DNA of 64,000 nucleotides from Chara braunii (Eukaryota; Plantae; Charophyceae). Of this stretch, positions 18 to 62,969 are shown piece after piece. The notes below the pieces were generated by a model, which was given only the letters and a program-made list of their open reading frames with translations, had not been told where the DNA came from and did not search any database. The position numbers were made by a program, and so were the translations under genes. The DNA lies in contig BFEA01000006.1 of NCBI GenBank assembly GCA_003427395.1, positions 8,111,551 to 8,175,550 on the forward strand, in the 5' to 3' direction. Every line of letters begins with the position of its first letter. Positions within the stretch are counted from its first letter, which is position 1.

Positions 18-1511
18 GTGGCGTCCTATTTCCGTGCCTGGGATGGCGACTTCAACGGGATGGGAGCATGTAAAACATCTGACATGCTCATTCTGGCAGG
101 TAACGCAGAGTTCCGCGTAGTGCAGGTAGTGAAAAAAAGAGAAGAAAAAGTCTTAGAACAGAAAGAAAAAGAAGTTCAACCGAACCACCGGCAGTCTCTC
201 ACAAAAGACCGAGAGAATCCAGTACTAGCCACTCCGTCGTTAGAGTCTGACTACAGGATCAGGCAAGAGGGGCCAAGGGTTGAGCCGGGCTGCAAGAAAG
301 TCGTGGACGAAATGAGTGCAGATCATCGAGCAGTGGAGAGAATGCTTACCCAAAAGATTGAGAAGATGGAGGTGGACATGCAAGCAGCAGTAGTAAGGCT
401 TGAGACAAAATTGGCAGAAGCGATGTCAATGCACAAAAGCCTCGAAGGGTGTAAGAGTAGGATCTCTCAGCTGGAGTCCGAGAGGGACAAACTGACAGAG
501 AGAGTTAATGAACTGGAACATAAATTCAAAAAAGAGATCACTACTAAACGCGAGAGGACTGCTTTGCTCCGAGAGTTTTCGGGAAAGGAACTCCTGGATG
601 CAACAAATAATTTTGAAGTGAACCTCAGGAGTCGAGACGGTAATTGGCATGAACATGTATACTCGGGGAAACTACGTGATGGCACTCTTATCGCAGTAAA
701 GAGGATGAGGGATCATGCTAGTGCACAGATCATTCATGATCGCAACGAGATGAAGACAGAGGTAGTCGATCGGTTGAGATTGCTCCAGCATCCCCATCTT
801 CTAACGCTGCTAGGAGTCTGCTATGAAGAGAGCTGTCTGGTTTATGAGCACATGGAACGTGGAAGTTTGAAGAATTGGATCGTGCAAGGCGAAAACCACA
901 CCGGAGGGTCTCTTCCATGGTATGCTCGCTTTCGGGTAATGGCGGAGGTTGCCAGAGGCCTGGACTTTCTCCACTCTGATCTATCCGCTTCTCGTGGTGG
1001 TCCCGTCATCCATTGTGCCATTAAGCCAACAAACATCCTGTTGGACCAGAATTTTGTGGCCAAGATAGGAGGTGTTGATCAGGCATTGCTTGTCCCAACG
1101 ACTCCAGACGCTGAAGGGAAAACCTCAGTGGCACCAGAGTTTGCGGCACACAACTCTCAGTACATTGCCCCCGAGTATTGGCAGTCCAGAGTTTTTGATG
1201 AGAAGACAGATGTCTATGCATTTGGAATCACTCTTTTGGAAATGTTGACCGGATATTTCTCAAACGCATTCAAAGTCATCGAAGACTCTATAGAGGATCT
1301 GCCGGCTTTCGAGAGAGCTCTGGACGCCAATGCAGGCATTTGGGATGTTGATCTGGCTCGTAAAGTAGCAAACTTGGGGTTGCGCTGCGCCAGCCCGAAT
1401 GCTCGTGAACGGCCTGGCATGACGACACCTGGTGTAGGCATCCTACCCGTATTGGAGGGAGTTGCAAGGAAGGTGGATCTTGCGCAGTCAATTAGCGATC
1501 ATCAGAGATAA
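18..1511 (+). CDS. Receptor-like cytoplasmic kinase-like protein (RLCK-IX / U-box-kinase-type domain) with coiled coil; probable pseudokinase; 5'-partial
   Basis: Coiled-coil region followed by REFSGKELLDATNNF, IAVK, LRLLQHPHLLTLLGVCYEESCLVYEHMERGSL, LPWYARFRVMAEVARGLDFLH, YIAPEY, KTDVYAFGITLLEMLTG and ERP. HRD reads HCA. The frame is open back to the window start. Confidence 0.85.
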   Translation: MASYFRAWDGDFNGMGACKTSDMLILAGNAEFRVVQVVKKREEKVLEQKEKEVQPNHRQSLTKDRENPVLATPSLESDYRIRQEGPRVEPGCKKVVDEMSADHRAVERMLTQKIEKMEVDMQAAVVRLETKLAEAMSMHKSLEGCKSRISQLESERDKLTERVNELEHKFKKEITTKRERTALLREFSGKELLDATNNFEVNLRSRDGNWHEHVYSGKLRDGTLIAVKRMRDHASAQIIHDRNEMKTEVVDRLRLLQHPHLLTLLGVCYEESCLVYEHMERGSLKNWIVQGENHTGGSLPWYARFRVMAEVARGLDFLHSDLSASRGGPVIHCAIKPTNILLDQNFVAKIGGVDQALLVPTTPDAEGKTSVAPEFAAHNSQYIAPEYWQSRVFDEKTDVYAFGITLLEMLTGYFSNAFKVIEDSIEDLPAFERALDANAGIWDVDLARKVANLGLRCASPNARERPGMTTPGVGILPVLEGVARKVDLAQSISDHQR

Positions 1512-10330: not shown

Positions 10331-12104
10331 GCGGCTTCCTGGAAGCGGGAATCCTTTGTATTGGCCATCAAACCCACGATCAAGGGCACTGTGAACGCTC
10401 TTTTGAGCGACACTCAAATCCTTGAGCGCCCACCACTCGCTCAGCGCGTGATTTCACAGGTCACAGTCGGCTCTAAGCTGTAAATCTGTGAGGAGCCTGA
10501 GGGAAGACCACATTGGTGCTTCGTTCTTGCATAAGATGGTTATCATAAGACTGGTCGACTTTTACCACTGAAGTAAGGGTACTATCTTCAGAAGTTTGTG
10601 CTTTCTCTTTTTTTCCCCACCAGCAAGAGAGAGGCCTAACCCAACAGCACCTTTCCCAGCTATTTTTTCAGAAGTGCGCCGGATAACGCGCTGGCCTGAA
10701 ATGGAAGGGGGCCGCCCGTAAATCGGATCGGCGGCCAGTCTTGATTTTCGTGCCGACATAAGGGAAAGGTACTCAGTGGCTTAAACTTTAAACCACCAGT
10801 ACACAGCCCCAGCCTTGCAGAAAGAGCAACTCACCGCCACCGCACCGTAGCAATGGCTCAGCCTACCGGATCACTCTGGCTGGCACCGCCAGGCAAAAAG
10901 TGAAAAAAGGACACTGATAGGGTTGGGAAAATCTTGGGCCAAAGTAAGGCACCTCCAGGTGTGAATGTACTGGTGGAATAATGCACATCCGTGCTCATGG
11001 ATTCTGCTGCAGTAATTTGACATTTGCCTGGCCTATCTAAGTTGGCCATATGGGTACCCTTGTCCTGCACAGAACCCCCAAGGTCGGGCTGAGGCCGGCA
11101 GGCCTTGACAAGTGAGGCCCAGGGACAAGTGGAACCAGGTGCCGTTGCAGTCGGGAACCGAAACTCGCCCTCAGCAGTTCGGTGCCTGCCTGAGTTTCAA
11201 CAGCAAACAGAACTCCCGCTGGGAAAAAGGTTTTCTGAGGGGAGTTCAGCAAGATAAAGAGTTTGGGCAACGGCTCCTGGGTCACTCGGACTCACACCTA
11301 CAGTTTCGTCACTCGGACTCACACCTACAGTTTCGAATAGTCGACTTTAGCCTTTCTCGAAACGAGGCAAAAAACGAAAAGGGCCCAATGCCAGGTTATG
11401 TACAAGATCCAGAATAAGGAAGGGAAGAAAAAGGTCCAGTGCCATTAAGAGAGCAAAGCTTGTGTACAACATGCACTGGGTACCGCGCAAGCGTGGAAGC
11501 GCAGCCACTCGGGAGCAAGACCGGCCGGCGGCCAGGGCTTGAAGCGTTCGACTTGCTTGCTTGCCCGCTACTGCTCCACCCCACCATGGTCGCTGCCCCG
11601 GCCTGCCAACTGATCTATGATGGCGGAAAAACAACGACTGCATCTTCCCATAGAGAAGGGCAAGATGCATCGGTTACTATGAATACCAACTGATGCATCT
11701 TACCACTTTCTGCTGAAGATGCATTCATTCTCTTTCCTTTCGACAAAGGTGTGGCGAAGCCCTAACTCCTCCTGGGAAAAACAACGAGTGCATCTTCCCA
11801 CACAGAAGGGAAACATGCATCCGTTACTACGACAGCACATCATGACGCGTGAATTCGAATAGAATACTAATTCGAACACCCCGACTGCCACCAGCATTCT
11901 GCTGTGCACACCTGCAAACCCACTTCGGCCCGGCCTTCCCGATCCGAATCCGAAAATCGCACCCTCGCGATATCGCCCGAAATGAAAAACCGGCCGCCGT
12001 CCATGAAAACGGCCCGCCTACCGCTTTTCCTGACCGCTGATCTGACCTTCTCCAACCGCACTCGCGACCACCCGGCCTACCGGTCTCTTCCCCAACAGCG
12101 ACCG

Positions 12105-14801
12105 TGTGATGCGCAACCTCACGCCCAGTGTTGTCTTCCGTTCGGAGTGTTAGGCATGCGAAAGGAGGTCCAGAAAAACAGCAAGATGGGGTGTGCCAAG
12201 GATTTTTGGGAAATTGAGTGTGGGGACTCAGACGGAACTGAAATCCCCCGTGTTGGTCCGATGGAGCAAGTCGATCGTTTTCGCCCGTCGCGGAATGCAC
12301 GCGCGGGCAAGGCGCGAAGAGGGAAAAATCCAAATTCAATCTAAAAAGTATTGCCAGGCTTCCCACTGTGCTACGGCCCGTCGTTTAGAACGGAAGGGCT
12401 CGGGCACACTCCGTGTGTCTCGTTTTCGTATCAAATCCCGTCGTCGTTCGCTGGTCAGTTCTGAGTCTGACGTGGAGGGTCTCAGCCGCGTGGCTCGTTC
12501 TTTATGCTCGTCTTAACTCCGCACACGGTAGTGGAAACCCCTGGATTCGTAGCGCTCAAAGCGCTGACACTCGGTACATAGAGTGCGCGGCCAGTGGGGT
12601 TCTACTGCCGTCCACGGGATGACGATCAACTCGTTGAATGGCAACAATATCGAATAAGGTGGGAAGTTCGTATCGATAATGATAAACTCGGCTTCTACGA
12701 ATCCTGCACAACGGTCGGCCAGAGGGAAGTAGTATTGTTCGTCGATTTGTGCGACGGCTTCTCGTACGTCCCACTCACATACACGTGTCCTTTCCTTGCT
12801 GTAGGGAAAAGGTCGCGTTGGGATGGGAGATACGGGAGGCTGGTGCCCAATCGAAGGGTACGTGTCAGTCCACATGTCAATCAATCGCAAATATCCCGAG
12901 ACGTCATTAAGGACTGAAGCATTCGCGCGACCCCCAATCAATCATTTTGACACAAGAGAGGGAGCAAACACGCATGAGCTTGATCATGCATATGGTTAAG
13001 GGACCGATCAGCTCAACACAACGTTGGTCCCTGGCGCCTTGTTTCACAAGGCGGCCCGGTGGTTCGGTCGCTGATGTCGTGCAACATAAGGCAAATGGCA
13101 TGCGCAATGCTCTCGAGACAACAAATCTAAACACTCTTGCATTCTCGAGCAAAATCCCGACGACAATCGTCTAATCAACACGAAAAGAGTCACACGTTTC
13201 CAAACATGCATTCACTGTGGAAGGTGCGAAAATGAGACATGCACAGGAAAAGATAGGTCGCATTGCACATTACACACGCATCCACCGTTCACAAGACAAG
13301 AAGACGGGGTCCTTGTATAGGAGGATTGCCCAGGAAACTAATGGAAGAGTTCCGGAAGAAGTTCTTTCACACAGACACAGGATGCCGACTCATTCTCATT
13401 CAAGGGAGGGACAATCATTCAGACGTATCGTCATTCAAAAAGAGAAAGAGAGAGAGAGAGAGAAAGAGAGTCGAGGAATGTTAGAATAGAAGATGACAAG
13501 GTCCAGAAAGAGAAAAGTTTGGCATCACCGCCGTACACTCACGCCAAGGATAACAATCCGCAACACGGGCGCATTCGCCTTTAATTCCAATATGGCCCCG
13601 GGCCAATCACTCACTCAACTCCAATCATCGATCCTCATACCCGCACCGACGATCCTGGCTGTCGCGTGCTAACTCCCACCACTGCGATCGTCACCCCGCT
13701 GTCGTAAACTTGACACGGTTTGCCCGGATCCCACAGTTCGTCGTGGCGATCAAGCGCGCAACCGGCCAGCCTATCGTCAACCGGACAGGACTTTCCGACT
13801 CGCATCAACCGACTTTGCCTAGCCACTGCTTCCCCGAAGATGGCTTAGGAGTCGAGAACGTAAGAGAGATTTGTAGGCGCGCTTGCGGGTTTTATAGTTG
13901 CGAGAAAGGAGATAGAAGGGGGAGAGAACGATGGGAAGGCGGGGGTGTAGGAGGCGAAGGAGGAGAAGATTCTGAGAAGAGTGCTCTACGAGCGTCATTG
14001 TGATTCCTCGGAACTCAGGGTTCAACCAATCAGATTCGTCGCGTGATAGGAAGGTTCGATCGATCCACGCACCTGATTGGCGAGTGGGAGTTATTGGGGG
14101 ATCGACCGGGCGTCGTACGTCAGACTTAGAGGGTGAGAAGAGAAAAGGCACGAGAGGTGGCGCAAGATGGGTCCAAGATTCAGATGATCAAGAAAGGGAA
14201 ATGGGCGCGCGAAAGCAAGGCGGGAGAGAGAGAGAGGGAGAAGGAAAAACAATTACGGGGAGAGAGAAAAAGGAGGGAGAAGGGAAGGAAGGTGCGGGAG
14301 GGGGCGATGCGGGGAACAGAGAGGAGGAAGCTTTTGCATGCACGGCGCTATCGACAAAAAAAAAAAAAGGCACCGAAAAAGTTACAGCTTGCTTCTTTCC
14401 TAATTCAAAATTGAAATCACCATATCCGCGCGCGAAAAAGCAACGCGGGAAAATAAAATCCTACGCTTATTCGTATTCACGCAAAATTCCGAGAGTTTTC
14501 CCCGACGCGCCCAAGAACATTCACACACCCAAAGAAGACACGTCGAAGTTCCGCTTATCCCGGAATCCCCAACTACCGAGCCCAATTCCCAGCGCGCTCG
14601 CTAAGGCGCGCGCAAATTCTCATGTATTTCCCGACTTTACAAAAAGAAAACCAGAACTCGGCAGTCGAAAAAGCTCTCAGAAAAAGGAAAATGCGGCATC
14701 CGAAAACAAGAAATCGAAACGAGGTCTTTCTGGGGTTGGTATGATACAGGCAAAAGAAAGGGTACGAAAGATGTCATGGGTTCGAAAAGTGGTTCGTCCC
14801 A
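12105..14801 (-). repeat. 3' LTR
   Basis: Co-linear with 24098-26787 and 35358-38230. Confidence 0.95.
12350..12941 (-). pseudogene. LTR-encoded ORF, copy in the 3' LTR with a premature TAA at 12513
   Basis: Homologous to 24318-24920 and 35591-36139. GAA>TAA relative to the other copies. Confidence 0.65.
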
Positions 14802-15267
14802 TATGTGACGCGCAGGGGGTTCCAAAATTATGTGATCTCCTGATTGGATGTTATGGCGGACGAGGAGAGAGGAAGGGGCAGAACAGAGTGATGCATGAGG
14901 AACCAATCATATCAACAAAGTTTGAGAAAGAAGCACAAGGAGCGATAACCGAGCCGCGGATGAGATGGCGACAACATCCATGGCAAGATCTCCGCAGCCC
15001 TGTCATATGCAACCCTCTGCCTTGTGGAGATCATCCAGGTGGCGCCATCATGGTCCACCTGATATCAGTGTGCTCTGCACCCCAGCTCGTTGCTGTCCGT
15101 CGAATCAGAGTGTAGGTTGACGTCATCATCGATGGCGTGATCTTCGCGAAGCTTACTGATTCGTGCTGATGAAGAGAGGAGAGAGGGGGGTGGGGCACGC
15201 GGGTGGGATCTACCGCCTAGTTGGAATAGGCCAAAGATAGAGAGAGGAGCGAGAAGATTGGCGTGGT

Positions 15268-15750
15268 TCATTGAGGAAGGGGGAAGGGGACGAGGGTTGG
15301 GATCACAACTGGAGCCTTGCGTGGTGATCGGTGAATACCGTCAAGATCCGATGCAAAGATCAGGATGATGTTATACCCTTCCCGGACGAGGACGTGCTGC
15401 CATACGTTGGACAGTTGCTCCGTCCACTCGCGCAGCGAGGCCAAGATCGCGGTATGCCTCAGCGGGTTGACCGAGCTGATGTCGTCGGTGAATCATGCCC
15501 CAGTGGTGACGTGGCTCGTTCTGGGACCCGCTCGCCGATGAACTGCAGTAACCTCCGCGAACACTATCACGTGAGGGTTTCCTTCTATCTGAAACGCGGC
15601 GGCGGCACAGATACCTTCGTCGCAGAAGAATCGCATCAAACGACGAAGATCCGTATTGAGCCGAGGGTGACAAACTTGCCGAATCTCTGAGATGTGGCCA
15701 CGTGGTTGCCGCAGCTGTTCCTCAAGAACCCGCTCCGTGATAAAACTCAT
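15268..15750 (-). pseudogene. ~160-aa unknown ORF immediately after the integrase (one internal TGA at 15493)
   Basis: Manual translation MSFITERVLEEQLRQ...TTGA*FTDDISSVNPLRHTAILASLREW...VPFPLPQ*. ATGA overlaps at both ends. Confidence 0.55.
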
Positions 15751-17071
15751 GGCGAGGTTGGAGAGGAGGACGAGGGACAAGAGGGAGAAAGAGGAGAGAG
15801 GGTTAGATCATCGTCGTTTTCCTCGCTTTCCGAAGAAGAAGAGGGAGGAGGATCGGAAGGAGGAAGGAGACGGAGGTAGGAGGTATGTCGGACGATGGGG
15901 ACGGAGCTATGGCTGGTCCTAGCCTCAGGCGCGATGCGCACCGTCTTAGCGCCGTTGGGTCCGAGTTCGACAACGGGAAAACAGCCAGAGAACTTGGGAG
16001 CGAGTTTCCGGTCGCGTGCACATTTACGTACCTGCACTAGGTCCCCCAATTTAAACTGGTACAAGGGCCCAGCATTTCCGTTCCGGGCCTCGTAGCTACG
16101 GACCTGTCTACCGCGGGCCAGCTCGGTCATCCTTTGTCTTTTGCGGGGTAGCTTCAGAACGGCCTGTTCCATCAAATCGGTGTACCTTTTGGCTTTGGCC
16201 TTGAGGGCCGCACGCGTGTCTCTACCCTCTGCTTTGGCAATTTCCAAGTTACCCCGGTAATCGACACAGGGGAGGCTATTAATTCGAAGCTGAAATGGGG
16301 TGAACCCCATAGACTCGTGAGGGGTGGCCCGGTGGATGCCGACGATCTGATATACGATCTCGGGTCAAGGACGCGTGTCGTGTGCCGCTAAGTTCCTGCG
16401 AAGGGCGATTTTAATCATACGGTTGGCATTCTCGGCCAACCCGTTCGATTGGGACACGTGGGGTGCCGTATGTCGGAGCGTGATGCCCCTTCGCGCAAGT
16501 AGTTTTTCTACCTCACCTTAAAATTGAGATCCATTGTCGGTTAGAATTTCTTCTGTATTTAAATGGGTATAGAGGAACCGTTCGATGTACGTGGCTCTTT
16601 CTGCGGCCTTTCGGGTCTTACAGGGATAGACTTCGATATACTTGGAAAAGTGGTCAATTAATACTAATAGAATAGAATATTCACAGCGGTTTGGGCCAGG
16701 TGGCACGTCAATATCTGTCGTGTCCATACTGACTCGCTGGAAAGGACGCTCTACTTCCGTTGGTACGATCGTGTTTGGTCCCCGTATAGCGGCGCGATCA
16801 GCGGCACAGACCAGACAGTTAGCGACAATGTATTTCACATCATCTCGTATTGGACCAAAACCATCGGTTCTGGTCTACAGTTGCCTCCGTGACACGTATC
16901 GCGAAATGAACGGCTTGTTCTTCTTGAGCAGATCTTATCCAATCGTATCTCTGGAAGGGATGGGGAACTGTCAGCCATGAACCCGATCAGTCGGTTTTGC
17001 GCTTTTCCAAATGACCATTGATCCATCGATAGTTCCGAGATCTCTCGGTCGCCCTACGTGTGTCGTGTTTG
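15747..17071 (-). pseudogene. Retroviral-type (rve, DDE) integrase, disrupted
   Basis: YRWINGHLEKRK..WLTVPHPFQRYDWIRSAQEEQAVHFAIRVTEATV..RWFWSN / DDVKYIVANCLVC (zinc-binding region); PFQRVSMD, LIDHFSKY, ILTDNGSQF, SNGLAENANR, GFTPFQL, FKLGDLV, KLAPKFSGCF. Stops at 16987, 16518 and ~16365, and a frameshift at ~16843. Confidence 0.9.
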
Positions 17072-17377
17072 CTGAGGTGGCCCAATAACAGCGATTTTGT
17101 CAAAACGGACATTTTATATTTTTCGAACGAAATTGGAATTGTGATTTTCATGCTGATTTTTTGCGTTTTGAGCACACCATTTTGAGTAGGTTCCCCGCAT
17201 TGTTTATAGTTTGTGCTCATGTTTGCCACAAGTTTTACATTGCTTTCTCACACATTTTGGGTGGTGTTACAGTTTCATTCGCATTATGTGAAGCTATAGG
17301 CGTCTTCATTATGGGTTTCTATTGTACTTTTCTACCATATCGATTAACATTTACTATGTTTCGCAATATAATATCAT

Positions 17378-18204: not shown

Positions 18205-18753
18205 TTATTCGTTCTCTACGATGACTGTTGAGATAGAAGCAGTGATGGCAGTCCTCCGAGCAACAAATTCTAACATTGCATCCCGAGCGTGAATACAATA
18301 TTGTTTAACGTGCTGCTTGTACGCTCGCACCATCGAGTCTCCTGCATCACTCCTCGGGATCTTTTGTCTCCATGTCTTCGTTGCACATATTGTAAGCCCT
18401 TCATGGTATTGAACAGCAACACATGCAATGGTGGCGCTGCATTTCTCTGTCACCAGGGCAGCCACAAGGCCGTAATCGTAGAATACCTCCTTGCATCTTG
18501 CGTTCCCGTCCTTCTTGTAATTATTATTATTATGACGGTCGCACACCCCCACGAGGTTGTAAATCTTTCTTCTTGCGCTTAGAGGATACAAGTGCAGTGA
18601 GTCCAGTGACGGTTCGTAATATGCAAAATCCCAGGTGACAAATCCGATGGCGTTACGTTGTCTCCTCAGCCGGTCTGATATCAGTTCCCCCCATTTGATT
18701 GGCGTTCCCCACCAATCTTGTCTTAACTGCCTCTGCATCCATTCCGAATCCAT
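18205..18753 (-). CDS. Unknown protein B (domain X paralog)
   Basis: MDSEWMQRQLRQDWWG...KEVFYDYGLV...IACVAV..EGLTICATKTWRQKIP...RDAMLEFV...ENE. Preceded by a polypyrimidine tract and TGCAG. Confidence 0.65.
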   Translation of the reverse strand: MDSEWMQRQLRQDWWGTPIKWGELISDRLRRQRNAIGFVTWDFAYYEPSLDSLHLYPLSARRKIYNLVGVCDRHNNNNYKKDGNARCKEVFYDYGLVAALVTEKCSATIACVAVQYHEGLTICATKTWRQKIPRSDAGDSMVRAYKQHVKQYCIHARDAMLEFVARRTAITASISTVIVENE

Positions 18754-18833
18754 ACTGCACAGACCAATACGAAAAAGATAAAGAGAGAAAAAAAAAAAGA
18801 AACACATACATCAAAAGCACAGATGAACGTCGG

Positions 18834-19599
18834 TTAATGCGGATAAGCACGCAAGACGGATTGAAGGTTGTTCCGTTTGCCACTTTCGCGCCGATGAATA
18901 TGATCGACGATATAAAACTTTGTAACGGTGTTAGTTTTTTTCAGTTTTTTCATTTTACCCTCTTCGTTGTGGCATGTTATCATGGTCATCGCCACGTGAA
19001 TGGCGACCCTCGACCTTTCGTTGATGACACGCAACATTGCATCTTTGATTTCGTTGAATAGACGTCTGACAAGCTTCAGCGTCGCCCTCCTGTAGTTGTT
19101 GTTTTTGAACGTCGACGGCACCTTCATTCGTTCAATCCGTGTTGCGCACCGTGTCAGACCACCGTCAGAGCAGAACGCCACGCACGTTACCGATCCATGA
19201 TGCTCACCCCCCGTACCCCACATGTGAACAAACCCCAATCCGTAGAACACTTCGGTCCATTTGCCGGAGTCGTGGCTTCCGAAGTTCGCCAATAAAATTT
19301 TATCTGTCCAGACTTCCGCCCGTCGTTATTTTTCGTCATATTGAGGACCATCTGTACGGGCGGCCTCGAATCGAACCTCCGTGGGGAGTTTGTTCGTTCT
19401 ACACAGGGGGCACCTCCATTCCTTGCTACTCGTCCGATATTGAACACAGGCCCCGTACGCACGATTGACACACGTGGCACATTCTACCCAATCGACAAAC
19501 CCGGTCTCGAAAGGAGGACAGTCGACCCCATAAACCCATGCAATACACGTGCAAAAATAATAGAACTTATCGGGGAGGGTGGCGAAGAAAGCTGAGGAA
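18834..19599 (-). pseudogene. Unknown protein A: PHD finger plus domain X (no ATG; one internal TAA at 19326)
   Basis: Manual translation YFCTC...DWVECATCVNRAYGACVQYRTSSKEWRCPLCR (19553-19401), in the same frame as ORF 18834-19292. Confidence 0.7.
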
Positions 19600-19714
19600 C
19601 TAAGATGGGTCGAATTAGCAGGAGAAGAAGGGTTACGGAAGCAAGCGGGGCAGCCATGACGACAAAGGGGGAGAGATGGGGCTGAATAATGGAGAGAATT
19701 AGTCGGCGTGTCAC

Positions 19715-22700
19715 TTACTGCTTCGACAGGATCTCAACTTGGCCGTACCGAGGTCCGATCTCCTGTTCGGGTTCGTTCCACGGAATCACCTCCTCACTCT
19801 TCAGAACTTTCTCAGCCCGGTGCAATCGTGTCAGTCCGTCTGTGTTCCCGTGTCTCTCGTGCTTCCGATGACGGATATCAAAGTCCATGCTCTGCAGCAC
19901 CGTTGCCCATCGCCCGATCATGCCCGAGTAATCCTTTGACTTCTTCAGAGCCAACATGGCTCATGATCAGTCACCAGGGTGAATTTTCATCCGTACAGGT
20001 AAGCACGAAAGTGACTGATTCCTCAAAGGGCCGCGTAACATTCTCCCGTTGGAGCGGCGTAGTTGCGCTTGCAGGCGGGCACTGATTTGGATGCATACTC
20101 CACCACATTCTCGAGTCCGCTTGGTCCCACCGGGGCAAGGATCGCCGAAATCGCCTCTGGCTGCCAGTCAATGATGAGAACAAAAGGTTTTTCGGGATCC
20201 GGTCTTATAAGGACCGGAGCCGAAATGAGAGCAGCCTTGAGTTTGGAAAACGCTTGATCGCACTCCGGCGTCCAGATCAACGACTGATCCTTGCGCAGGA
20301 GATTTGTGAGGGGTCCCGCAGTCGCCGCGAAGCCCTTGATAAATCTTCGGTAATACGAGGCTAGGCCCAGAAAGGCGCGAACTTGCGTGATGGTGGTAGG
20401 CACCGGCGCGTCCCTGACAGCTGCCACCTTCTGCGGCTCCGGTTGGAGTCCCTTGTCTATCACCACGTGCCCCAGGAAAGAAATGATGGTGAGGAAAAAC
20501 TGGCACTTCTCAAGCGCCACCTTGAAACCTGCATCTCGTAACGCATGTAGTGCCCATTTGATGCGCTGCACGTGTCCCTCGTAGGAACTCGAATACACTA
20601 TGATGTCATCCATGTACACGATCACGCAGTAGTTGATGATGTTTTGCGTCAAACGAGTCTTCTGCACGAAATTCTGAAAAGCCATGTTCATGGCCCGCTG
20701 GAAGGTCGTTGGGGCGTTGCAGATACCCATCGGACATCGAATCCATTGCCACGTGCCTTCGAAAAGCACAAACGCTGTTTTCGGTCGATCTTCCTCTCGG
20801 ACAAGAAGATGATGGAACTCATGACGAACATCAAACTTGCTGAAAAATCGAGCACTTTCAATCGCATCCAATAACTCATCAATCCGGGGGAGGGGATACA
20901 CATCTTTAATCGTGATATCATTCTGTTTTCGATAACCAATGCAAATGTGAATCCCTCCAGCCTTCTTGGGTACTATCACTACAGACCATGGTCCTATAGC
21001 GGGTTCAATCCATCCATTAGCTTCGAACTCTTTAATCCGCTGAAAAGTGGTCGCTCGTTGAGCTGGCGAGTATCGGTAGGGAGCGCAGCTAATGGGCGGA
21101 TGATCTTCTGTGGGAATGGCATGTTCAATTACATTAGTTAACCCAATATCATTGTCATGCACGCTCAACACTTCTGCGTAACCATTCAATACATAGATTA
21201 ACGATTTTCGCAGTTCCGCGGGAACGTGACTTGGGAGGGGGATCGTCGATTCCCCGGATATATTAAGGGGTATATCGATCCAATCAACCGGTCGTTCCCA
21301 CCGCTCATGGACACTAGAGAAAACGGAACTACTGGTGCGAACAGAAAAGACAGTTGCTATCATCTGGGACTCAGCGTGGCTGATCATCTCCGTTTCTTTA
21401 GTTTCAGCGTCAGTCTCTAAACCAACCGAAGTCGGTTCCACCGTTAGCCCTGTTAGATCCGTCATTTCTTGCATTAGATTCGACACGTAACTTACGGGTG
21501 CTTCCGCTTCTTGTTTAATTAAGGCGATGGAGACTCCCGTCCTTAGTAATGATCGGGGTGGAAAAACAGAAACGTCCAAATACTGTTTCGTTTGCTGATA
21601 ACGCGTTCGTAAGGAAAGAGCTCCCTCGTACAGGGTGCGAGGGGGTTCCAAATCATCAGCCAGATCAGAAACTTGTAATATGGGTTCCCCGAGGAGGACT
21701 GAAGGACTAACCTGGGTTGCTAGAGGCGTGAATGCACTGTCTTCAGAATCCACGTGGAAGCTTCGAGCGGTGTCGGGACACACTCGAAATTCTTCGGGGG
21801 TTTCATGTTCGAAAAGTTCAACCAGATGCTTCCATTCCTCTTTACTGGGCATCTCTTCTTCATATTCTTGCTCCCTGATTCCATCCCCGAGGCGCGAGAG
21901 GGAGCATTCCTTGAGATTAATGCCTCGGATCATCCCTATTAGGGCTGAGTTAGAGACCCGTTTTATCGTTCGGGTGGAGACTCGCAAAGGAACAGTTTGA
22001 GGTTTTCCCCCATTTTGTGTGAGCACCAGCTGCTTCGAATCGAAATGCAGACGTGCACCCACTGCCATTGCCCAAGGTAATCCCAACAACACAGAGTAGG
22101 AGCGTACATCTATTACAAGTGCATTAACAAGGATGTGTACTCGCCCGACCTTTACCGCCACGTTCTCGATAATGCCTACAATGTTCATTGCTTCCTCGTC
22201 GGCAGAGACATAGTTGTCTTTGCCAGATTGAGGAAGAATGGATTTGAGTCGTCCCGTCTTTTTTATAGTCTCCAATGATATGGCCACTGCAGAAGACCCT
22301 GTGTCGATTAGGGCATTAAACGGCTTACCCCAAACTTCACAGTCACATTCCGCACTTTTCCATAGTATTGGTCGAGCTCGTACGAAGTGATCCTTTTCCG
22401 CTAAAGAGATGGCGGCTATGCGTGCGGCTTCAGGTTCTTTAGTGTCCGGCTCAGGGGATACCACTTTCTCACCTTCTTCCTTCTTCTTCAACATCCGTTG
22501 TATGCGTTGATTGGTGAAACGCTTTTGATTTTTCTGGCAGTGTTGTAAAAGTTTATTGTTCGCCGCTTCAGATATGGTGAGCAGATGCCCTACGGGGATA
22601 GGAACGCGGATGTCTAATTGCTTGAGCGTTTTCAGTACATCAATATGCCCTGTCCGAAATTGTGGTCCAGGATTGGATTCGCGATCGACCGACTCGAGAT

Positions 22701-22875
22701 CATCCGGAACCGATCGGATCGCTGCGATCATGCCTGCGAGATGGAGATACTCGAGAGGATTGACCACGTCAGCAACGTCGGGGGAAGAAGCTCCTGATGT
22801 CGACGCCGTTGCTATCGAAGGGGAAGACTGTTCTGGAGTATACGCTACGAGCTCTCTTCCCTGGTCCGTATCCAT
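19715..22875 (-). pseudogene. pol: Pol: aspartic protease, reverse transcriptase, RNase H (no integrase; disrupted in RH)
   Basis: ALIDTGSS, YPLPRIDELLD, MGICNAPTTFQ, YMDD, RAFLGLASYYRRFI, IDWQPEAISA, GECYAAL, TDHEP, GRWATVLQ, HGNTDGLTR. Ends GQVEILSKQ* at 19715. Confidence 0.93.
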
Positions 22876-22887
22876 CAGAGCGGCTAC

Positions 22888-24003
22888 TCATCCTTGATTA
22901 AGGGCGACAGGGGCCGCAGCAGGGGGAGGCTGATTACGTTTCGGCTCCGGACAGTCTCGGGCGAAATGCCTGGGCTGTTTGCAGTTAAAACACTCAATCT
23001 TTCCTGTTGGATTAGCTGGATGAGAGAACTGCAGTGCGTACCCTGGTGCAGGCGGAGTAGGCAAGAGTGGAAATGGTGCGGGGGCAGGCCGAGTAGGGGC
23101 CAGGTTAGGCTTAACTAGCCGGTTCATTATCTGTTCCATACGTTCCATGTGAGCCGCCTGCATCTCGATCAAGTTGCTCATCCACTCGGACTGCTTGGTA
23201 GTGGCCGTATGGATCATCTGGGCGAGACGTAAATTGGTTATGGCTGGCGAGGGGGGTTCAGGTGAGACTCTGTTTTTTACTGTCGCGATCGATTGGTTCA
23301 CGGGGGGAGAGGAGGAAGAAGCAGGCAGGGTATCGAAGACGATTCCGCCTAAGAGGTCATGGTCGGGGCGGGGATAAAACCGTTCGACCGCCTGCAACCA
23401 CGATCGCCTTTTAGCCGTTACATCCCGTATAGTATCCGTGATGTCTTCGTCTCCCTGGCTGATATACTTTTTTGTATCAGCCAGATCTAATTCCAAAGCT
23501 TTAGTTATGATAGCCGATAACGGGTGTGTTTTCGGCGGAACCTTCTTCTGTAACTTCCCTTTCAGTGTCGAACTTCGTAGGTGATCGATAAACAGATCTC
23601 GAGCGGATTTCTCATCTCGCCTGGATTTGTCCAACGTGGTTTGAAACCGATCGACAAAATCGGGCAACAGTTCCCCTGGTCCTTGAAGTCGACTTTTGAG
23701 TACATACCAGGCAGCATCTTCACTAACCGTATCGAATCGAGCCAAGAAAGTTCGCTTGAAAGTATCCCAATCTACCCACGTATGTTTTCTAAACCAGTCA
23801 TGCGACGTATTACGAAGTAGCAATGTCAGAACTCGGGGAAGATCGGTTGCACTGTAGTTTTGAGCTTCGACAGCTTCTAGCCAAGCGTCAGGATGGGTAT
23901 GGTTAGGGAAGAAGGGGAAGGGGGCAGGGATGCTAACAATCACCCTAGTATCGTCCACCATTGGTATTGCGGGTGCTACCGCTCCAGCCTGAGACTTGGT
24001 CAC
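22888..24003 (-). CDS. gag: Gag with CCHC zinc knuckle, same frame as pol
   Basis: WDTFKRTFLARF, QGPGELLPDFVDRF, CFNCKQPRHFARDC. True start uncertain. Confidence 0.9.
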   Translation of the reverse strand: MTKSQAGAVAPAIPMVDDTRVIVSIPAPFPFFPNHTHPDAWLEAVEAQNYSATDLPRVLTLLLRNTSHDWFRKHTWVDWDTFKRTFLARFDTVSEDAAWYVLKSRLQGPGELLPDFVDRFQTTLDKSRRDEKSARDLFIDHLRSSTLKGKLQKKVPPKTHPLSAIITKALELDLADTKKYISQGDEDITDTIRDVTAKRRSWLQAVERFYPRPDHDLLGGIVFDTLPASSSSPPVNQSIATVKNRVSPEPPSPAITNLRLAQMIHTATTKQSEWMSNLIEMQAAHMERMEQIMNRLVKPNLAPTRPAPAPFPLLPTPPAPGYALQFSHPANPTGKIECFNCKQPRHFARDCPEPKRNQPPPAAAPVALNQG

Positions 24004-24084: not shown

Positions 24085-24097
24085 GGCTCCGATACCA
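24085..24097 (-). promoter_or_regulatory. Primer-binding site for initiator tRNA-Met
   Basis: TGGTATCGGAGCC against the canonical TGGTATCAGAGCC, directly adjacent to the 5' LTR. Confidence 0.9.
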
Positions 24098-26787
24098 ACC
24101 TCACGCCCTGTGTTGTCTTCCGTTCGGAGTGTTAGGCATGCGAAAGGAGGCCCAGAAAAACAGCAAGATGGGGTGTGCCAAGGATTTTTGGGAAATTGAG
24201 TGTGGGGACTAAGACGAAACTTAAATCCCCCGTGTTGGTTCGATGGAGCAAGTCGATCGTTTTCGCACGTCGCGGAATGCACACGCGGGCAAGGCGCAAA
24301 GAGGGAAAAATTCAAATTCAATCTAAAAAGTATTGTCGGGCTTCCCACTGTGCTACGGCCCGTCGTTTAGAACGGAAGGGCTCAGGCACGCTTCGTGTGT
24401 CTCGTTTTCGTATCAAATCCCGTCGTCGTTCGTTGATCAGTTCCGAGTCTGACGTGGAGGGTCTCAGCTGCATGGCTCGTTCTTTATGCTCGTCTTCACT
24501 CCGCACACGGTAGTGGAAACCCCTAGATTCGTAGCGCTCAAAGCGCTGACACTCGGTACATAGAGTGCGCAGCCAGTGGGGCTCTACTGCCGTCCACGGG
24601 ATGACGATCAACTCGTTGAATGGCAACAATATCGAATAAGGTGGGAAGTGCGTATCGATAATGACAAACCCGACTTCTACGAATCCTGCACAACGGTCAG
24701 CCAGAGGGAAGTAGTATTGCCCGCCGATTTGTGCGACGGCTTCTCGTACGTCCCACTCACATACACGTGTCATTTCCTCGCTGTAGGGAAAATGTCGCGT
24801 TGGGATGGGAGATACGGGAGGCTGGCGCCCAATCGAAGGGTACTTGTCAGTCCACATGTCAATCAATCGCAAATATCCCGAGACGTCATTAAATACAGAA
24901 GCGATTCGCGCGACCTCCAATCAATCATTTTGACACAAGAGAGGGAGCAAACACGCATGAGCTTGATCATGCATATGGCTAAGGGACCGATCAGTTCAGC
25001 ACAACGTTGGTCCCTGGCGCCTTGTTTCGCAAGGCGGCCCGGTGGTTCGGCTGCTGATGTCGTGCAACATAAGGCAAATGGCATGCGCAATGCTCTCGAG
25101 ACTACAGATCTAAACACTCTTGCATTCTCGAACAAAATCCCGATGACAATCGTCTAATCAACAGGAAAAGAGTCACACGTTTCCATACATGCATTCACTG
25201 TGGAAGGTGCGAAAATGAGACATGCACAGGAAAAGATAGGTCGCATTGCANAGTACACACGCATCCACCGTTCACAAGACAAGAAGACGGGGTCCTTGTA
25301 TAGGAGGATTGCCCAGGAAACTAATGGAAGAGTTTCGGAAGAAGTTCTTTCACAGAGACACAGGATGCCGACTCATTTTCATTCAAGGAAGGGACAATCA
25401 TTCAGACGTATCGTCATTCAAAAAGAGAAAGAGAGAGAGAGAGAGAGAAAGAGAGCCGAGGAAAGTCAGAATAGAAGATGACAAGGTCCAGAAAGAGAAA
25501 AGTTCGGCGTCACCGCCGTACACTCATGCCAAGGATAACAATCCGCAACACGGGCGCATTCGCCGTTAATTCCAATATGGCCCCGGGCCAATCAATCACT
25601 CAACTCCAATCATCAATCCTCATACCCGCACCGACGATCCCGGCCGTCGCGTGCTAACTCCCACCACTGCGATCGTCACCCCGCTGTCGTAAACTCGACA
25701 CTGTTTGCCCAGATCCCACAGTTCGTCGTGGCGATCAAGCGCGCAACCGGCCAGCCTATCGTCAGCCGGACAGGACTTTCCGACTCGCATCAACCGACTC
25801 TACCTAGCCACTGTGTCCCGGAAGATGGCTTAGGAGTCGAGAACGTAAGAGAGATTTGTGGGCGCGCTTGCGGGTTTTATAGTTGCGAGAAAGGAGATAG
25901 AAGGGGGAGAGAACGATGGGAAGGCGGGGGTGTAGGAGGAGAAGGAGGAGAAGATTCTGAGAAGAGTGCTCTACGAGCGCCATGTTGATTCCTCGGAACT
26001 CAAGGTTCAACCAATCAGATTCGTCGCGTGATAGGAAGGTCCGATCGATCCACGCACCTGATTGGCGAGTGGGAGTTATCGGGGGATCGACCGGGCGTCG
26101 TACATCAGACTTAGAGGGTGAGAAGAGAAAAGGAGCGAGAGGTGGCGCAAGACGGGTCCAAGATTCAGATGATCAAGAAAGGGAAATGGGCGCACGGAAG
26201 CAAGGTGGGAGAGAGAGAGAGGGAGAAGGAAAAACAGTTACGGGGATAGAGAAAAAGGAGGGAGAAGGGAGGGGAGGCGCGGGAGGGGGCAATGCGGGGA
26301 ACAGAGAGGAGGAAGCTTTTGCATGCACGGCGCCGTCGACAAAAAAAAAAAAAAGGCACTGAAAAAGTTACAGCTTGCTTCTTTCCTAATTTAAAATTGA
26401 AATCACCATATCCGTGCGCGAAAAAGCGACGCGGGAAAAGAAAATCCTACACTTATTCGTATTCATGCAAAATTCCGAGAGTTTTCCCCGACGCGCGCAA
26501 GAACATTTACACACCCAAAGAGGACACGTCGAAGTTCCGCTTATCCCGGAATCCCCAACTACCGAGCCCAATTCCCAGCGCGCTCGCTAAGGCGCGCGCA
26601 AATTCCCATGTATTTCCCGACTTTGCAAAAAGAAAAACAGAACTCAGCAGTCGAAAAAGCTCTCAGAAAAAGGGAAATGCGGCATCCGAAAATAATAAAT
26701 CGAAACGGGGTCTTCCTGGGGTTGGTATGATACAGGCAAAAGAAAGGGTACGGAAGATGGCATGGGTTCGGAAAGTGGTTCGTCACA
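24098..26787 (-). repeat. 5' LTR (lacks the terminal 11 nt present on the 3' LTR)
   Basis: Co-linear with 12116-14801. Starts TGTGACGAACC on the minus strand. Confidence 0.95.
24318..24920 (-). CDS. LTR-encoded unknown protein (sense to the element)
   Basis: Open frame, conserved in all three LTR copies with many synonymous changes against the solo LTR. Confidence 0.7.
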   Translation of the reverse strand: MEVARIASVFNDVSGYLRLIDMWTDKYPSIGRQPPVSPIPTRHFPYSEEMTRVCEWDVREAVAQIGGQYYFPLADRCAGFVEVGFVIIDTHFPPYSILLPFNELIVIPWTAVEPHWLRTLCTECQRFERYESRGFHYRVRSEDEHKERAMQLRPSTSDSELINERRRDLIRKRDTRSVPEPFRSKRRAVAQWEARQYFLD

Positions 26788-27164
26788 ACCGCACCCTTCA
26801 ATTACCCATGTTACGGCCCTATAAACCCCTTTCGCCATTGTCGGCATTTCCTGAAAAAGACGTCCTCGCTACGCGACAAAATGGAACCGGTATAGCGCAG
26901 CCTCCTGGCTGCGAACAATCAGAAAAAAAAAAAAAAAACCATCAAAAAATGTCTGTATCCTTTGCACAGTCAAAAAGCTGATCCGAAGTTCAGTTCCTGA
27001 ACTGTGCCGTCAACTGTCACCTATGACGGACAGGCCGGCCAATGCTTTCTAAACCATTTGGATTTCCGCAACCAAAGGTGCCACGCCTTTACGTCTCCTC
27101 TGCCAGTGCAAGACGATAACATGCATGGACTCTTATCTTCTCTTTTTTTTCTTTTTTTTGTTCT

Positions 27165-31861: not shown

Positions 31862-32800
31862 TCACAACAACCACCACGCCCGATGCCGCCGACGAAGAAA
31901 CCGGGCAAGGTGACATCGATCGTCGGCATTTTGATCATTCTCATCCTGTTCACACTCAGGTCTCACAGGGTAACCTCCCCTGCTGCAGAGGAATACGGCG
32001 AAAAGGACGCCCAAGAGGACGATATTGATGATTGACATGGAGCGCCAGCTCCTTGTCAGAGTGGCCACGAACGCAGCCTTACAGGAATGGCAGTCGAAGC
32101 ACTTCTCCTCCTCACCGTTTTGGAACAGCGAGCAATCCCGTTCGGCGAAAGAAGAAGAAGAAGAAGAAGAAGAAGAAGAAGAAGAAGAAGCAGAAGCAAT
32201 GGCAGGGATTTCGTAGAGCGAAGCGGAGGCGTTGATCACGGCAAAGCCGCACGAATCGGGCGGCTCACGGCACCCGGATTGAAGTCCGTTGAACTTCAAG
32301 TTGATGATCCCGGTTATGCGATCAGGCTTCTGCAGGGACAGTTGCTGGCACTCCTCCCTCTGCGTCAGGCACTGCTTGATTTGGCTCCACCCACTCTCGT
32401 CTCTTACTCTCTGCCGCATCCAGCGGGAGTAATCGGCCAACTTGAACTCCCTGTACCCCTTGCCTTCTACCACGTGTCCGCCGTTTCCGCCAGTCGACAC
32501 CGCGAGACCGAAGATTGTGATCGCAAGCGAAGAGTAAAACAGGGGAGGGAGGAGAACGCGGGCAGGGTAGTGCAGAATAACATCCACGTCGGGGCGATTC
32601 TTAAACCAAAGGCTGAGGCACACTGACGACAACGAGATAAACAACAACCCGGCGGCGGTGGAAAGAACGAAGGTGTCGAGGAATAGCTCACAGGAAGCGG
32701 CCTTCTGAGGCCATATCCCTCCCACGCACAACCCGCTGAACAGGAAGGCGGAGCCTAAACAGAAGAAAGGCACAGCTATCGCTCCCGCAAAGGCAACCAT
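31862..32800 (-). CDS. Plant-type tetraspanin (divergent, intron-less)
   Basis: GGIW after TM1, GYREFKLADYSRWMRQRV..W..IKQCL, QSGCREPPDSCGF, DC..F.N...KCFDCHSCKA..V....SW, and TM4. Probable ATG at 32800; the frame is open to 32950. Confidence 0.88.
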   Translation of the reverse strand: MVAFAGAIAVPFFCLGSAFLFSGLCVGGIWPQKAASCELFLDTFVLSTAAGLLFISLSSVCLSLWFKNRPDVDVILHYPARVLLPPLFYSSLAITIFGLAVSTGGNGGHVVEGKGYREFKLADYSRWMRQRVRDESGWSQIKQCLTQREECQQLSLQKPDRITGIINLKFNGLQSGCREPPDSCGFAVINASASLYEIPAIASASSSSSSSSSSSSSFAERDCSLFQNGEEEKCFDCHSCKAAFVATLTRSWRSMSIINIVLLGVLFAVFLCSRGGYPVRPECEQDENDQNADDRCHLARFLRRRHRAWWLL

Positions 32801-58300: not shown

Positions 58301-59899
58301 TAAATCCCCACTTAAGTCAGTCCACATAACTTCCCAGAATTCCTTAGGGAATCCATCAATGCCGGGGTTTTTTTCCTCTTTCATTTGGAGGAGTGCAGAC
58401 CACACTTCGTCCTTGGTCATTGGTTCCTCTAATTTATTTTGTTGATGCGGGGAAACGTGTCTGTCCATTGGCGCCAGAAATTCTTTTAGTGTTTTTTTTG
58501 TCCCTTCCTCTTGTAAGGGTGGAATTTGGGAGGTATACAATTGTTTAAAGAATTTCCTCGTGATAAGTGTGTTGTGGGCGATATCGATGGCTACGATATC
58601 CTCATCGTCTAGGTCAAACAGTTCTTCGATAATAGTCCGTCGTGCTCGTGTTGTGGCGATTGAGAAAAATTGGGTGTCCATCGTGGCCTCCTGGGTGAAT
58701 TAGGCCACTTTTCCTCAGATTCTGATTCCTTGCCATCTGTGTAGTGCGTATTGTAGGAGCTGGTCCTTGATTCTTTGTATTCTTTGTATGGAGGAGGTGA
58801 GATGTTGTGACTCGGCCTGACATTCCAGGGCTATCAATTCTTTGTGTATGGACATTTCCTGTTGTTGTCGCATCACCGCCTTAGCTTTAGAGAATTCCTT
58901 GCACTTCCTGGCTAGAAAAATCAGACCGTTATTAAACCATGCGGACTGTGAGTCGAAAAGATGTTTTTGTTGACGCCAGAAGAGCCATTCATGCCGAATC
59001 ATTTGTTGGAAGGATATGTCATTGAGTAGAGAAGTGTTCAGCTTGTAGAATTCAGGCCCTTGATCAGGTCGTTTCCTCCTTGTCAGTATTATCCCATAAG
59101 ACTTGTGGTCTAGTCCTAGATATGGGCTACATGGGAGGATTATTGACCAGCGCAATGCGCCTTCTAGGTCATTGGAAAGAAAGATCAGGTCGATTCGAGA
59201 TTTGGATAACCGCATCGGGTCACTGTCCCTTACGCATGTGAAAGTCCTGGCTTGAGGGTGCAGTCGGCGGAACGTATCGAAGATTGAGAGGGTCCCATAA
59301 AGTTCAGTTATCATTCTCTCATCTTCAATCGCGGCAAAGGAGGGGGACTCCTGAGAGTTCCACCTATCGAGTCTCCTGTCAGGGGTGGCATTAAAATCTT
59401 CTGCTATGATTAGGGGGATACCTTCAGGGACTTGCCTTCCGAGCCCCCCGAGAAAGTCACGCCTCTCGCCAACCGTATTAGGGGAGTAGATGCAAAGAAT
59501 GCACAGTAATTTTAATTCGAGCATCCCTAAGACGGAGCCCATTGCCCTTCTACTTCGTCGAACGCCCAATGGACTGGTTGGAATCTGGAATCCGGGGAAA
59601 CCCAGATTGCCACCCCGGCTGAGGCCGGCCTAGGGGCGTGGGCTCTTATGGCAGAATGAGGCCAAATCATCCTGTGTGCTCTGTTGTGCTCCGGGTTATC
59701 TTGCAGATGTGTTTACGCAGATTACATCGGGCCAACGCCTTCCCCCAACCCCTCTAACGTGATACCAAATGGCTTGGCATTTTTCTGGTTTGCTAGAGGC
59801 CAAGTTGTTTACATTGATGGAACGGAGGTCCAAGTCTGCCGAATTTACGCACTTCTGCCAGGCCGGGTTTTTGCAATATAATGTTTCTACGTCGTCCAT
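55355..59899 (-). pseudogene. LINE ORF2: AP endonuclease plus reverse transcriptase, multiple frameshifts
   Basis: SINVNNL, IYSPN, AEDFNA, SRIDLIF, LDHK; KNPGIDG, NYRPITLL, QTGFM, NFEKAYD, VRQGDP, FVDD, GRALVIN, GGLGI. Confidence 0.92.
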
Positions 59900-61670
59900 C
59901 TCACAGTGTGTGCCATTGTTTGACGTCCCATCTATCCAGGCTCAGGGTTCTTTTTCGTAACATCTTGCATTGGCATCTGCAAACATCATCTTCTGGTCAA
60001 AAATCGCTAGCTTTAACCTTTGCGCATTGCAGATCTAGCAGAGCGTTATGACTGTACCAGCGTAGATTGGCGGTTTTATTAGATTCAAAGAGTAGGTATA
60101 GATCATTCCCGGCCATCTGCTGGTCGCCCCAGGTTTCGAATCGCATGCCTGCTCTCGCCCCTGGTGCATAGTGCTTGGGGATAAAGTCTCTCATTTGGTT
60201 AATGAAGGCTTTATCTCGTTCCCTACCATCCCCGAATTGGAAGGAGAAGTCCCAACCTTGAAGTGTTACGCCCCCATGCTCCCCTATAGGAGAAAGACCG
60301 ATTTCCCATTTCCCTTCAATCTTCCTCAATGGAATTACCAGCACTCCATCCGATTTGGAGAGTGGATGTTCGAACAAGCCACGTTCTATAAATTGTCGCA
60401 GCTTAAGTCTCTTTGAAATCATGGCTTTCTCTAATTCCCCCATTTCGCCCTTTTTCTCTAATTGTGTTTGTTGACTGTGTTTGTCCCGTCATTGCTAGGT
60501 GCGCGTGCATCACAAGGGGCGGGGGTGGGGGGAGGTCGGAAGCGACCCCGGGCGATGGTCAGGATGCACTGGAAGGCTTCTGCCCACGTCAAATAGGCGG
60601 GAGGACCAGCAGTTAGTGTTGTTCTCAGCGTAGGGCTGTTATTCAGGAGAGTTACCAGTTCTACATAGGATTTATCCCAATACTCCTCCCCACCCTCCTC
60701 ACCCTGTGGGAGATCGGTTTGTAAATGCTTGGTTATCCAATCCGCAACCACTTGGATTTTCTGATCCAGGCTCATTTCCTGAGGGGGGGCATCTGGGTCA
60801 TTCGGGCATTCCTCCATCTCTACATCTAGGGGAGTGGGGTGTTGTATCCACGTCCATTGGTTGTGCCCCGAATGCATCCAAGCAAAAATATGGGGCTAAC
60901 GGTTGTGTCTGCCCTTGTTCGGTCGAACGTGGTAGCGGTGGGGGTTGCTGCTCTTGGTGGGCCGGCCCACCTTGCCCTCCTTGCTGGGGTTGTGTTGGCA
61001 ATGGCTGCTGTGTTTTTTGTGTTTTCTCCCGCGCCTGCTGCTTCAGCCTCACCACCTGTTGGTGGGTCTGCATCCGTTGCTCCCGTGGTGAAGGTAGAGG
61101 TGCCGACGGTATTTTTGGGGTTGTCGCTTCAACCTCCTCCTCGATTGAGCAGTCCCTGATTCCCCCCCCCCCCTTCTTCCCTTACCTCTCCCTTCTAAGT
61201 TTCTACCACCTGCCTTGCTTCCTGTTCTATGTTGGCCTGCCCCCCCCCCTTCTCTTCCCCTATCCCCCCACTCCCAGTTTCTACCATCTGCCTTTGTGCT
61301 TGTTCCGTGGTGCTACTCCTGCTGACTTCTTCACTCGTGCTCTGCTCTGAAACTGTCGGACATGCTTGTTCTCCCAAGTCCCGCATTTGATCTCCCGAGT
61401 TCTGACCGGTTTCACTTGTCTCAACATCTAGAAGGGTAAAGGGGTTTTCCTTATCCCTTCCCTTATCTCTTATCTCCGCTGGAGTTTCCTTTATCTTCTC
61501 CTTCCCTTTTCGCCCAACTACCTCCCAGGATTGCTTCCTCTCGGCCCCTTGGGGGCGGTCCGGTAGTTGATGGTGGCTGGGAGTCTTGTCTGGGGGTCCC
61601 CTGCCCTTCCCACGACCATCCAATCACTTCACCTTCTTTCTCTCCTGGTGTGTCGATGTACACCCATCCC

Positions 61671-62948: not shown

Positions 62949-62969
62949 TTATCGGTGTTCACGGATGCA

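Follow-up and report, generated by a model that had tools for sequence, protein, structure and literature searches.

The stretch analysed here (the window; 64,000 nucleotides of Chara braunii contig BFEA01000006.1, positions 8,111,551 to 8,175,550) contains a Ty3/Gypsy retrotransposon whose long terminal repeats (LTRs) carry an open reading frame of their own (the LTR ORF). Self-comparison of the window revealed two direct repeats of 2.69 kb that are 95% identical, and a third copy that is ~85% identical. The element occupies 26787-12105 on the minus strand and is flanked by a 4-bp target-site duplication (TSD; 12101-12104 and 26788-26791), and 38230-35358 is a solo LTR with its own 4-bp TSD. 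The 5′ LTR (repeat A, 2690 bp; 24098..26787, minus strand) starts with TGTGACG and ends in GTGAGGT, without a terminal CA, directly on the primer binding site (PBS). The 3′ LTR (repeat A followed by a terminal repeat B; 12105..14801, minus strand) is 4.7% diverged from the 5′ LTR, and the solo LTR (A plus B; 35358..38230, minus strand) is 14.6% diverged and holds a CT microsatellite and an N run. A right-end fragment of a related LTR lies at 44495..44653 on the minus strand and terminates with a B of 15 nt that has the same sequence as the element's internal B. A fourth LTR copy (L001) was taken from a public contig, one of 274 candidate stretches; the comparisons below cover these four LTR copies (5′ LTR, 3′ LTR, solo and L001), five right or internal junctions, and one full-length element. 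L001 also carries, at 1981-2502 and within the last 200 bp of the LTR, a ~520-bp AT-rich insertion with short inverted ends that resembles a miniature inverted-repeat transposable element.

Assignment to Ty3/Gypsy is based on the two long direct repeats, the PBS, the 4-bp TSD, and the order gag followed by protease, reverse transcriptase (RT), RNase H and a DDE integrase. The RT region is 81-91% identical to Chara braunii proteins, and C. braunii gene models make up 110 of the best 120 RT relatives listed, with identity of up to 91%. In a tree of the window RT and those 49 of 124 fetched proteins that cover most of the RT, the window clusters with 39 Chara rows in a single group on a long branch (support 100/99), which comprises two subfamilies, and the relatives from all non-Chara organisms in the tree share no more than 40% identity. 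The LTR is abundant, with 18,942 contigs from one genomic run aligning to it.

The conserved frame of the LTR ORF runs from an ATG at 24857 to a TGA at 24318 (179 codons, minus strand), wholly within the LTR, and ends ~220 nt before the PBS. It is open in the 5′ LTR (24318..24857) and in the solo LTR (35591..36130, minus strand), is interrupted by a premature TAA at codon 121 in the 3′ LTR (12336..12875, minus strand), and has a stop at codon 174 in L001. A reading of the window made from sequence alone (the sequence-only reading) had described an ORF of 180-200 codons in all three LTRs; the alignment is indeed gap-free over 540 nt in all four copies, but the 3′ LTR copy is cut short. The longer version, starting at 24920, was rejected, as its 21 extra codons start from a TTG and the other copies have frameshifts in them. 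An upstream ORF from the ATG at 25983 was likewise rejected as a gene, being 59, 59, 122 and 19 codons long in the four copies and having no codon periodicity.

Comparison of the copies showed that the LTR ORF is very probably a protein-coding gene kept by purifying selection. The codons first quoted in support, for the peptide PHWPRTLCTE, are exact at 12599-12570 and 35854-35825, with 8 of 10 codons differing, every one synonymously, and the signal spans the whole ORF. Between the element and the solo LTR there are 59.5 synonymous and 38.5 non-synonymous changes, giving an unweighted ratio of non-synonymous to synonymous rates (dN/dS) of 0.15 (Fisher p 9e-18); the 98 changes fall 17/19/62 by codon position. 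With transitions weighted threefold, this pair has a dN/dS of 0.20, and the five between-subfamily pairs range from 0.20 to 0.37 (p at most 1e-5). When 98 substitutions were placed at random in a neutral simulation, the mean was 62 amino-acid changes compared with 35 observed, none of 5000 simulations reached 62 third-position changes, and 98% of runs gained a stop. Three-base periodicity of substitutions along the LTR was confined to windows within the ORF, beginning at about codon 30, and the first 45 codons have fewer synonymous changes. The other five frames over the ORF contain 2-9 stops per copy, and none of the 12 listed places (of 13 in total) where indels are common in the genomic contigs falls in the ORF.

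The remaining pair consists of the two LTRs of a single insertion and behaves differently from the between-subfamily pairs, with a dN/dS of 0.61-0.75 (p 0.25-0.51), of which 0.75 (p 0.51) is the transition-weighted value. Changes private to the 5′ or the 3′ LTR comprise 1 synonymous, 5 non-synonymous and 1 stop, whereas the branch leading to the solo LTR carries 23.5 synonymous and 7.5 non-synonymous changes. Because the private changes look neutral in comparison with the solo's branch, selection acted while lineages replicated, and inserted copies decay. The earlier suggestion that even solo LTRs could express the protein is thus unsupported.

The predicted protein has a conserved core of ~95 residues with three invariant cysteines, followed by an Arg/Lys-rich tail. 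Invariant positions cluster in residues 31-113 (C33, W35, G63-F-V, F71-P-P, P87-W, W95, C100 and C103). The CxxC motif noticed in the sequence-only reading corresponds to C100 and C103, and the basic C-terminus noticed there to 12-13 K/R in the last 40 residues; an Arg-rich basic motif is also a mark of Rev and CERV, although a weak criterion. Four relatives were found in the protein collections searched: P0001 (76% identity) and P0002 (50%), which were 2 of 40 candidates, P0124 (38%), and P0123. P0002 retains the basic tail and has the same end point. A search of 1.84 billion representatives returned three matches, P0001, P0123 and P0124 (the last with E 8e-14 and 38% identity over the core). 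P0123 is the C. braunii gene model CBR_g19774, in which the LTR ORF is fused to unrelated Myb-like and DCP1 exons; this fusion is probably an annotation artefact caused by an LTR copy inside the DCP1 locus. No match to the protein was found by tblastn against phages, none of 34 viral contig candidates matched it, and no paralogy was found with the three internal ORFs that lie between RNase H and integrase. Structure matches in the ESM Atlas were disregarded (template-modelling score at most 0.35, with a predicted local distance difference test, pLDDT, of 0.35 for the query model), and a glutaredoxin-like match (E 1.1) was rejected as a chance CxxC.

Transcription of the LTR was assessed using raw oligo-dT reads amounting to 6-13% of three RNA runs. 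Two runs look stranded, and the first mate was taken as antisense, the usual convention, to define sense RNA; the third has reads on both strands and probably contains DNA. In the two stranded-looking runs, 25599-26082 had a sense depth per bin of ~6-19, whereas depth fell almost to zero across 24873-25477 and was 0-2 in the LTR ORF; sense reads also extend over the internal 3′ end of the element. A candidate promoter at 25876..26066 (minus strand) has two opposed CCAAT boxes in all four copies and a TATA-like word in two of the four, and LTR divergence among copies rises after 25550. An arrangement with a promoter near 25880-26066, 3′ processing near 25500 and the LTR ORF in a long leader within the 5′ unique region (U5) is somewhat more likely than not; alternatively, the ORF may be part of the 3′ unique region (U3), and the last 200 bp, which are well conserved, would then hold a short R-U5. 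The claim that the ORF is located ahead of gag hinges on this choice, and the RNA depth leans to U5. The candidate splice signals previously pointed out upstream in the LTR are present as motifs, yet the 5′ LTR no longer has the donor GT and L001 has it in changed form, and from the proposed acceptor to the start of the ORF there are 11 ATGs. The corresponding splice was not seen, its joint not being listed in three raw RNA runs or one contig run at low depth.

Separately, RNA runs X13 and X15 contain reads in which foreign sequence is joined to the LTR at 25954, and in run X11 one deep contig of 1164 nt covers the first half of the LTR (25611-26783). Both observations likely reflect a few host loci that transcribe or exonise LTR copies.

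The ends of the element differ from those of a standard Ty3/Gypsy element. The PBS, TGGTATCGGAGCC (24085..24097, minus strand), is presumably of the initiator tRNA-Met type. In the one full-length copy, the 5′ LTR ends in GTGAGGT on the PBS and not in the CA typical of Ty3/Gypsy LTRs, and no polypurine tract was found before the 3′ LTR, the best 12-mer in the preceding 99 nt having 8 purines. At the expected polypurine tract site lies an internal repeat B (CCCCCT-GCGCGTCACA) plus TA (14802..14819, minus strand), and this internal B-TA and the LTR start form the palindrome CGTCACA-TA-TGTGACG, with one mismatch in the 3′ LTR of the window. Four right ends (3′ LTR, solo, L001 and the 44495 fragment) share GTGAGGTT, then 0, 1, 1 or 5 letters, then GCGCGTCACA, one of the four having a mismatch in GCGCGTCACA; the terminal B sites are at 12114-12105, 35368-35358 and 44509-44495, and at 2546-2557 in L001. 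As the 10-nt B motif is not more frequent than expected by chance (4 matches at no more than 1 mismatch, compared with 2.4 expected), the evidence lies in its positions, all four places being element junctions. RNA run X14 contains 19 reads that depart from the 5′ LTR at its end, their unaligned letters beginning with the B motif. No LTR termini were seen among the 15 of 171 joints and 24 of 2582 loose ends listed for the genomic contigs.

The resulting layout, A-coding-B-TA-A-B, matches the A-coding-B-A-B arrangement of DIRS-type elements, with a B of 10-15 nt. DIRS elements have a tyrosine recombinase and no DDE integrase; here no recombinase family was detected among the internal ORFs scanned, and an rve integrase and 4-bp TSDs are present. 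This end structure suggests integration from an end-joined intermediate. Plus-strand DNA would start just upstream of B, the two cDNA ends would be joined (as a two-LTR circle or through an end-to-end jump of the RT), and integrase would cut the internally encoded palindrome at CA-TA-TG, which would generate A-coding-B-A-B with a 4-bp TSD. The extra T would be a residue of the tRNA primer, as in retroviruses. A copy-specific deletion at the 5′ LTR may account for the loss of the CA, but leaves the internal B unexplained.

The internal coding region, all on the minus strand, begins with gag (22888..23961; a weak Retrotrans_gag match and zf-CCHC), which is separated from pol by one in-frame stop. 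Gag and pol share one frame, and the single stop between them (22890-22885) is a candidate for read-through. Pol (protease, RT and RNase H; 19715..22875) is broken near 20023 in the window copy, and its frame ends in a TAA (19717-19715) that lies inside a GTAAGT donor-like motif (19720-19713) at the end of RNase H. Three extra sense ORFs seen in the window copy (19733-19329, 19325-18834 and 18807-18205; together 18205..19733) separate RNase H from integrase, and may be genes of the family or a nested insertion. The first of these is Cys-rich and zinc-finger-like (zf-4CXXC_R1, E 0.003, under the cut-off). The DDE integrase (15747..17220; rve E 4e-9) is broken in the window copy and lies in a frame separate from the RT, and not in the RT-RNase H frame expected of Ty3/Gypsy, as the stop is at 19717 and integrase ~2.6 kb further on. 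None of the 22 fetched C. braunii models with the RNase H-end motif of the window continues as the window does. The integrase frame (17220-17037 being its start region) is open from an ATG at 17220 into the conserved part and has in-frame ATGs; splicing could join integrase to pol, or integrase could be read from its own ATG. The donor-to-integrase phase is compatible, but so is that of 5 of 6 nearby AGs, and the phase therefore proves little. The start of a 3′ additional ORF (15283..15753) is common to many C. braunii gene models, which continue into a long acidic protein; this continuation is without a match in the window. Taken as a whole, the element is tentatively, though rather doubtfully, pictured as a complex multi-gene Gypsy that would combine end-joined cDNA, an integrase cutting the palindrome, a spliced integrase-pol and a new class of accessory gene in its LTR.

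The function considered most plausible for the LTR ORF protein, at a probability of roughly 0.4, is that of a small nuclear accessory regulator acting in trans on the element's own RNA. This reading is preferred because of the Cys core and basic tail, the selection seen only on replicating copies, and the intron-like signals in the element; as splice-like signals occur both in the LTR and where RNase H ends, the element would truly need to export unspliced RNA. The Cys core would bind zinc, the basic tail would serve as a nuclear-localisation and RNA-binding motif, and the protein would allow the long, intron-like full-length RNA to be exported or stabilised, like Rev of HIV or CERV of Cer1. 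The ORF would sit within the U5 leader, and replicating copies would express it from a message that is either spliced or has a start site of its own. The low-depth sense RNA over the ORF in the two stranded-looking runs counts in favour of such a regulator.

Several observations weigh against it. The tail of the 38% relative P0124 is different and of low complexity, both AlphaFold models are unusable (pLDDT 35 and 38), which leaves zinc binding by the core a prediction, and no fourth ligand is invariant among the relatives. Searches of Pfam, NCBIfam, PHROGs, PDB, the ESM Atlas and the 1.84 billion representatives gave no match outside the family and no homology to a regulator. Sense depth over the ORF is about 5-10 times below that over the LTR's first half, the reads derive mostly from other copies, few being near-identical to the window's copy, and 32 ATGs lie upstream of the ORF within the LTR. 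No splice joint into the ORF was listed in the RNA runs at their low depth, nor were canonical joints or a common start or end. The label of accessory regulator given in the sequence-only reading is accordingly plausible on the Cys core, the basic tail and analogy, with the family and fold searches blank.

The selection evidence would be identical if the protein acted on DNA or chromatin, either activating the LTR promoter in trans or counteracting silencing, and a Cys core with a basic tail would suit a DNA-binding protein equally well. Precedents exist in the Gypsy element of Klebsormidium that carries a chromatin enzyme under purifying selection, as described in the available portion of PMC5890265, and in plant additional ORFs whose products can be nuclear, according to the available portion of PMC7264820. 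No DNA-binding or chromatin domain was matched in the family searches, however, and this role, one of the two main rivals, is possible but unlikely. A role in the unusual end processing, in which the protein would help to join cDNA ends or help integrase to cut the palindrome between the two attachment sites (att-att), is the other main rival and more improbable still. An orphan LTR gene and non-standard ends do occur together, and a basic tail could bind DNA ends, but this co-occurrence is in one family only, the protein has no nuclease or ligase motif, and the 44495 fragment has a like end type yet no match to the ORF.

Derivation from half of a captured and degenerate thymidine kinase (TK1) is largely refuted. 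In the PDB, the four-sequence profile matched a thymidine kinase best (E 0.065, with residues 34-125 colinear), but the match was lost once the distant relative P0124 was added, and the Walker A motif and Walker B acids are absent. Moreover, a profile of 50 TK1-type proteins scored the four ORF sequences at no more than 0.7 bits, within the range of 1000 shuffles and short of a significant match, and hhalign probabilities with the 48-50-sequence TK1-type set were 1.4% and 0.4%. Finally, mutation bias, RNA structure or the shadow of an antisense gene is a scarcely credible source of the substitution pattern: transitions account for 68 of the 98 changes and the mirror antisense frame also has a low ratio (0.22), but the transition-weighted and simulated nulls fail to reproduce the pattern, the mirror frame has 6-8 stops, and amino-acid motifs persist at 38-50% identity.

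Elsewhere in the window, an intronless ABCG half-transporter of 602 aa (Pfam) lies at 48937-50745 on the minus strand, and its 3′ end is partly duplicated at 48427-48609; it seems to resemble oomycete ABCG genes, and transfer or contamination is possible. An intronless protein kinase with an N-terminal coiled region lies at 60-1511 (plus strand) and an intronless tetraspanin at 31862-32800 (minus strand). What is probably a degenerate long interspersed nuclear element, with an RT fragment (RVT_1) and ORFs beside it, occupies ~55355-62897 (minus strand), and GC-rich tandem repeats lie at 62965-63732.

Genes within or overlapping LTRs are familiar from animal retroviruses, where MMTV sag, HIV nef and foamy bel2 lie in U3. 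As in the Chara element, the coding sequence of these genes is duplicated with the LTR, and no sequence likeness between them and the LTR ORF was found. Additional ORFs of plant elements (Grande gene23, Retand, Ogre and Athila), as described in the available portions of PMC7264820 and PMC6317226, are likewise extra genes of no known family that are suspected nuclear regulators and are kept under selection across copies (the aORF/eORF definition), as is the LTR ORF. They occupy the internal region, upstream of gag or downstream of pol, whereas the Chara ORF is inside the LTR and, at 179 codons, is below the 250-codon cut-off of PMC6317226. CERV of the C. elegans element Cer1 is also a small accessory protein of a Ty3/Gypsy element and provides a functional precedent for an RNA regulator; in the available portion of PMC10309623 its role is proven by experiment, whereas the role of the Chara protein is deduced, with no homology between the two. 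No account of the Chara family, or of any Gypsy LTR that contains an entire gene, was found in the literature covered, most subscription papers and repeat databases being outside the search, and the available portion of PMC6431247 contains nothing on the Chara LTR-ORF family. A conserved gene inside an LTR escapes repeat masking and internal-region surveys, even where the LTR is abundant, and the LTR ORF adds an orphan protein family to the retroelement accessory genes in the algal relatives of land plants.

With regard to the ends, the Chara junction is similar to the LTR-LTR circle junction in having a two-fold symmetric CA..TG that a DDE integrase could cut internally. Unlike the retroviral circle junction, it forms part of the element's own internal sequence, and an extra piece of B is present at the right end after integration. 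An integration route through the circle junction was reportedly proposed in 1984. Integrases of HIV-1 and PFV cleave LTR-LTR palindromes in vitro, and the circle-precursor model (Panganiban and Temin) has been set aside for retroviruses, with linear cDNA the accepted precursor (available portions of PMC11054761 and PMC2615046). TSDs of 4 bp were reported for 6.2% of elements in the portion of PMC6317226 available. A close likeness is KnitGypsy-Dnmt3 of Klebsormidium nitens, also a charophyte Gypsy with DIRS-like A-coding-B-A-B repeats and an extra domain under purifying selection; its repeat layout is stated in a figure legend, and the text available gives no mechanism (PMC5890265). By comparison, no Dnmt3 was found in the Chara element, whose B measures just 10-15 nt and gives rise to a palindromic att junction. 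Should the whole family share this end structure, the Chara element would represent a natural case of integration from an end-joined intermediate, and would offer a testable mechanism for the unexplained DIRS-like layout of the Klebsormidium Gypsy.
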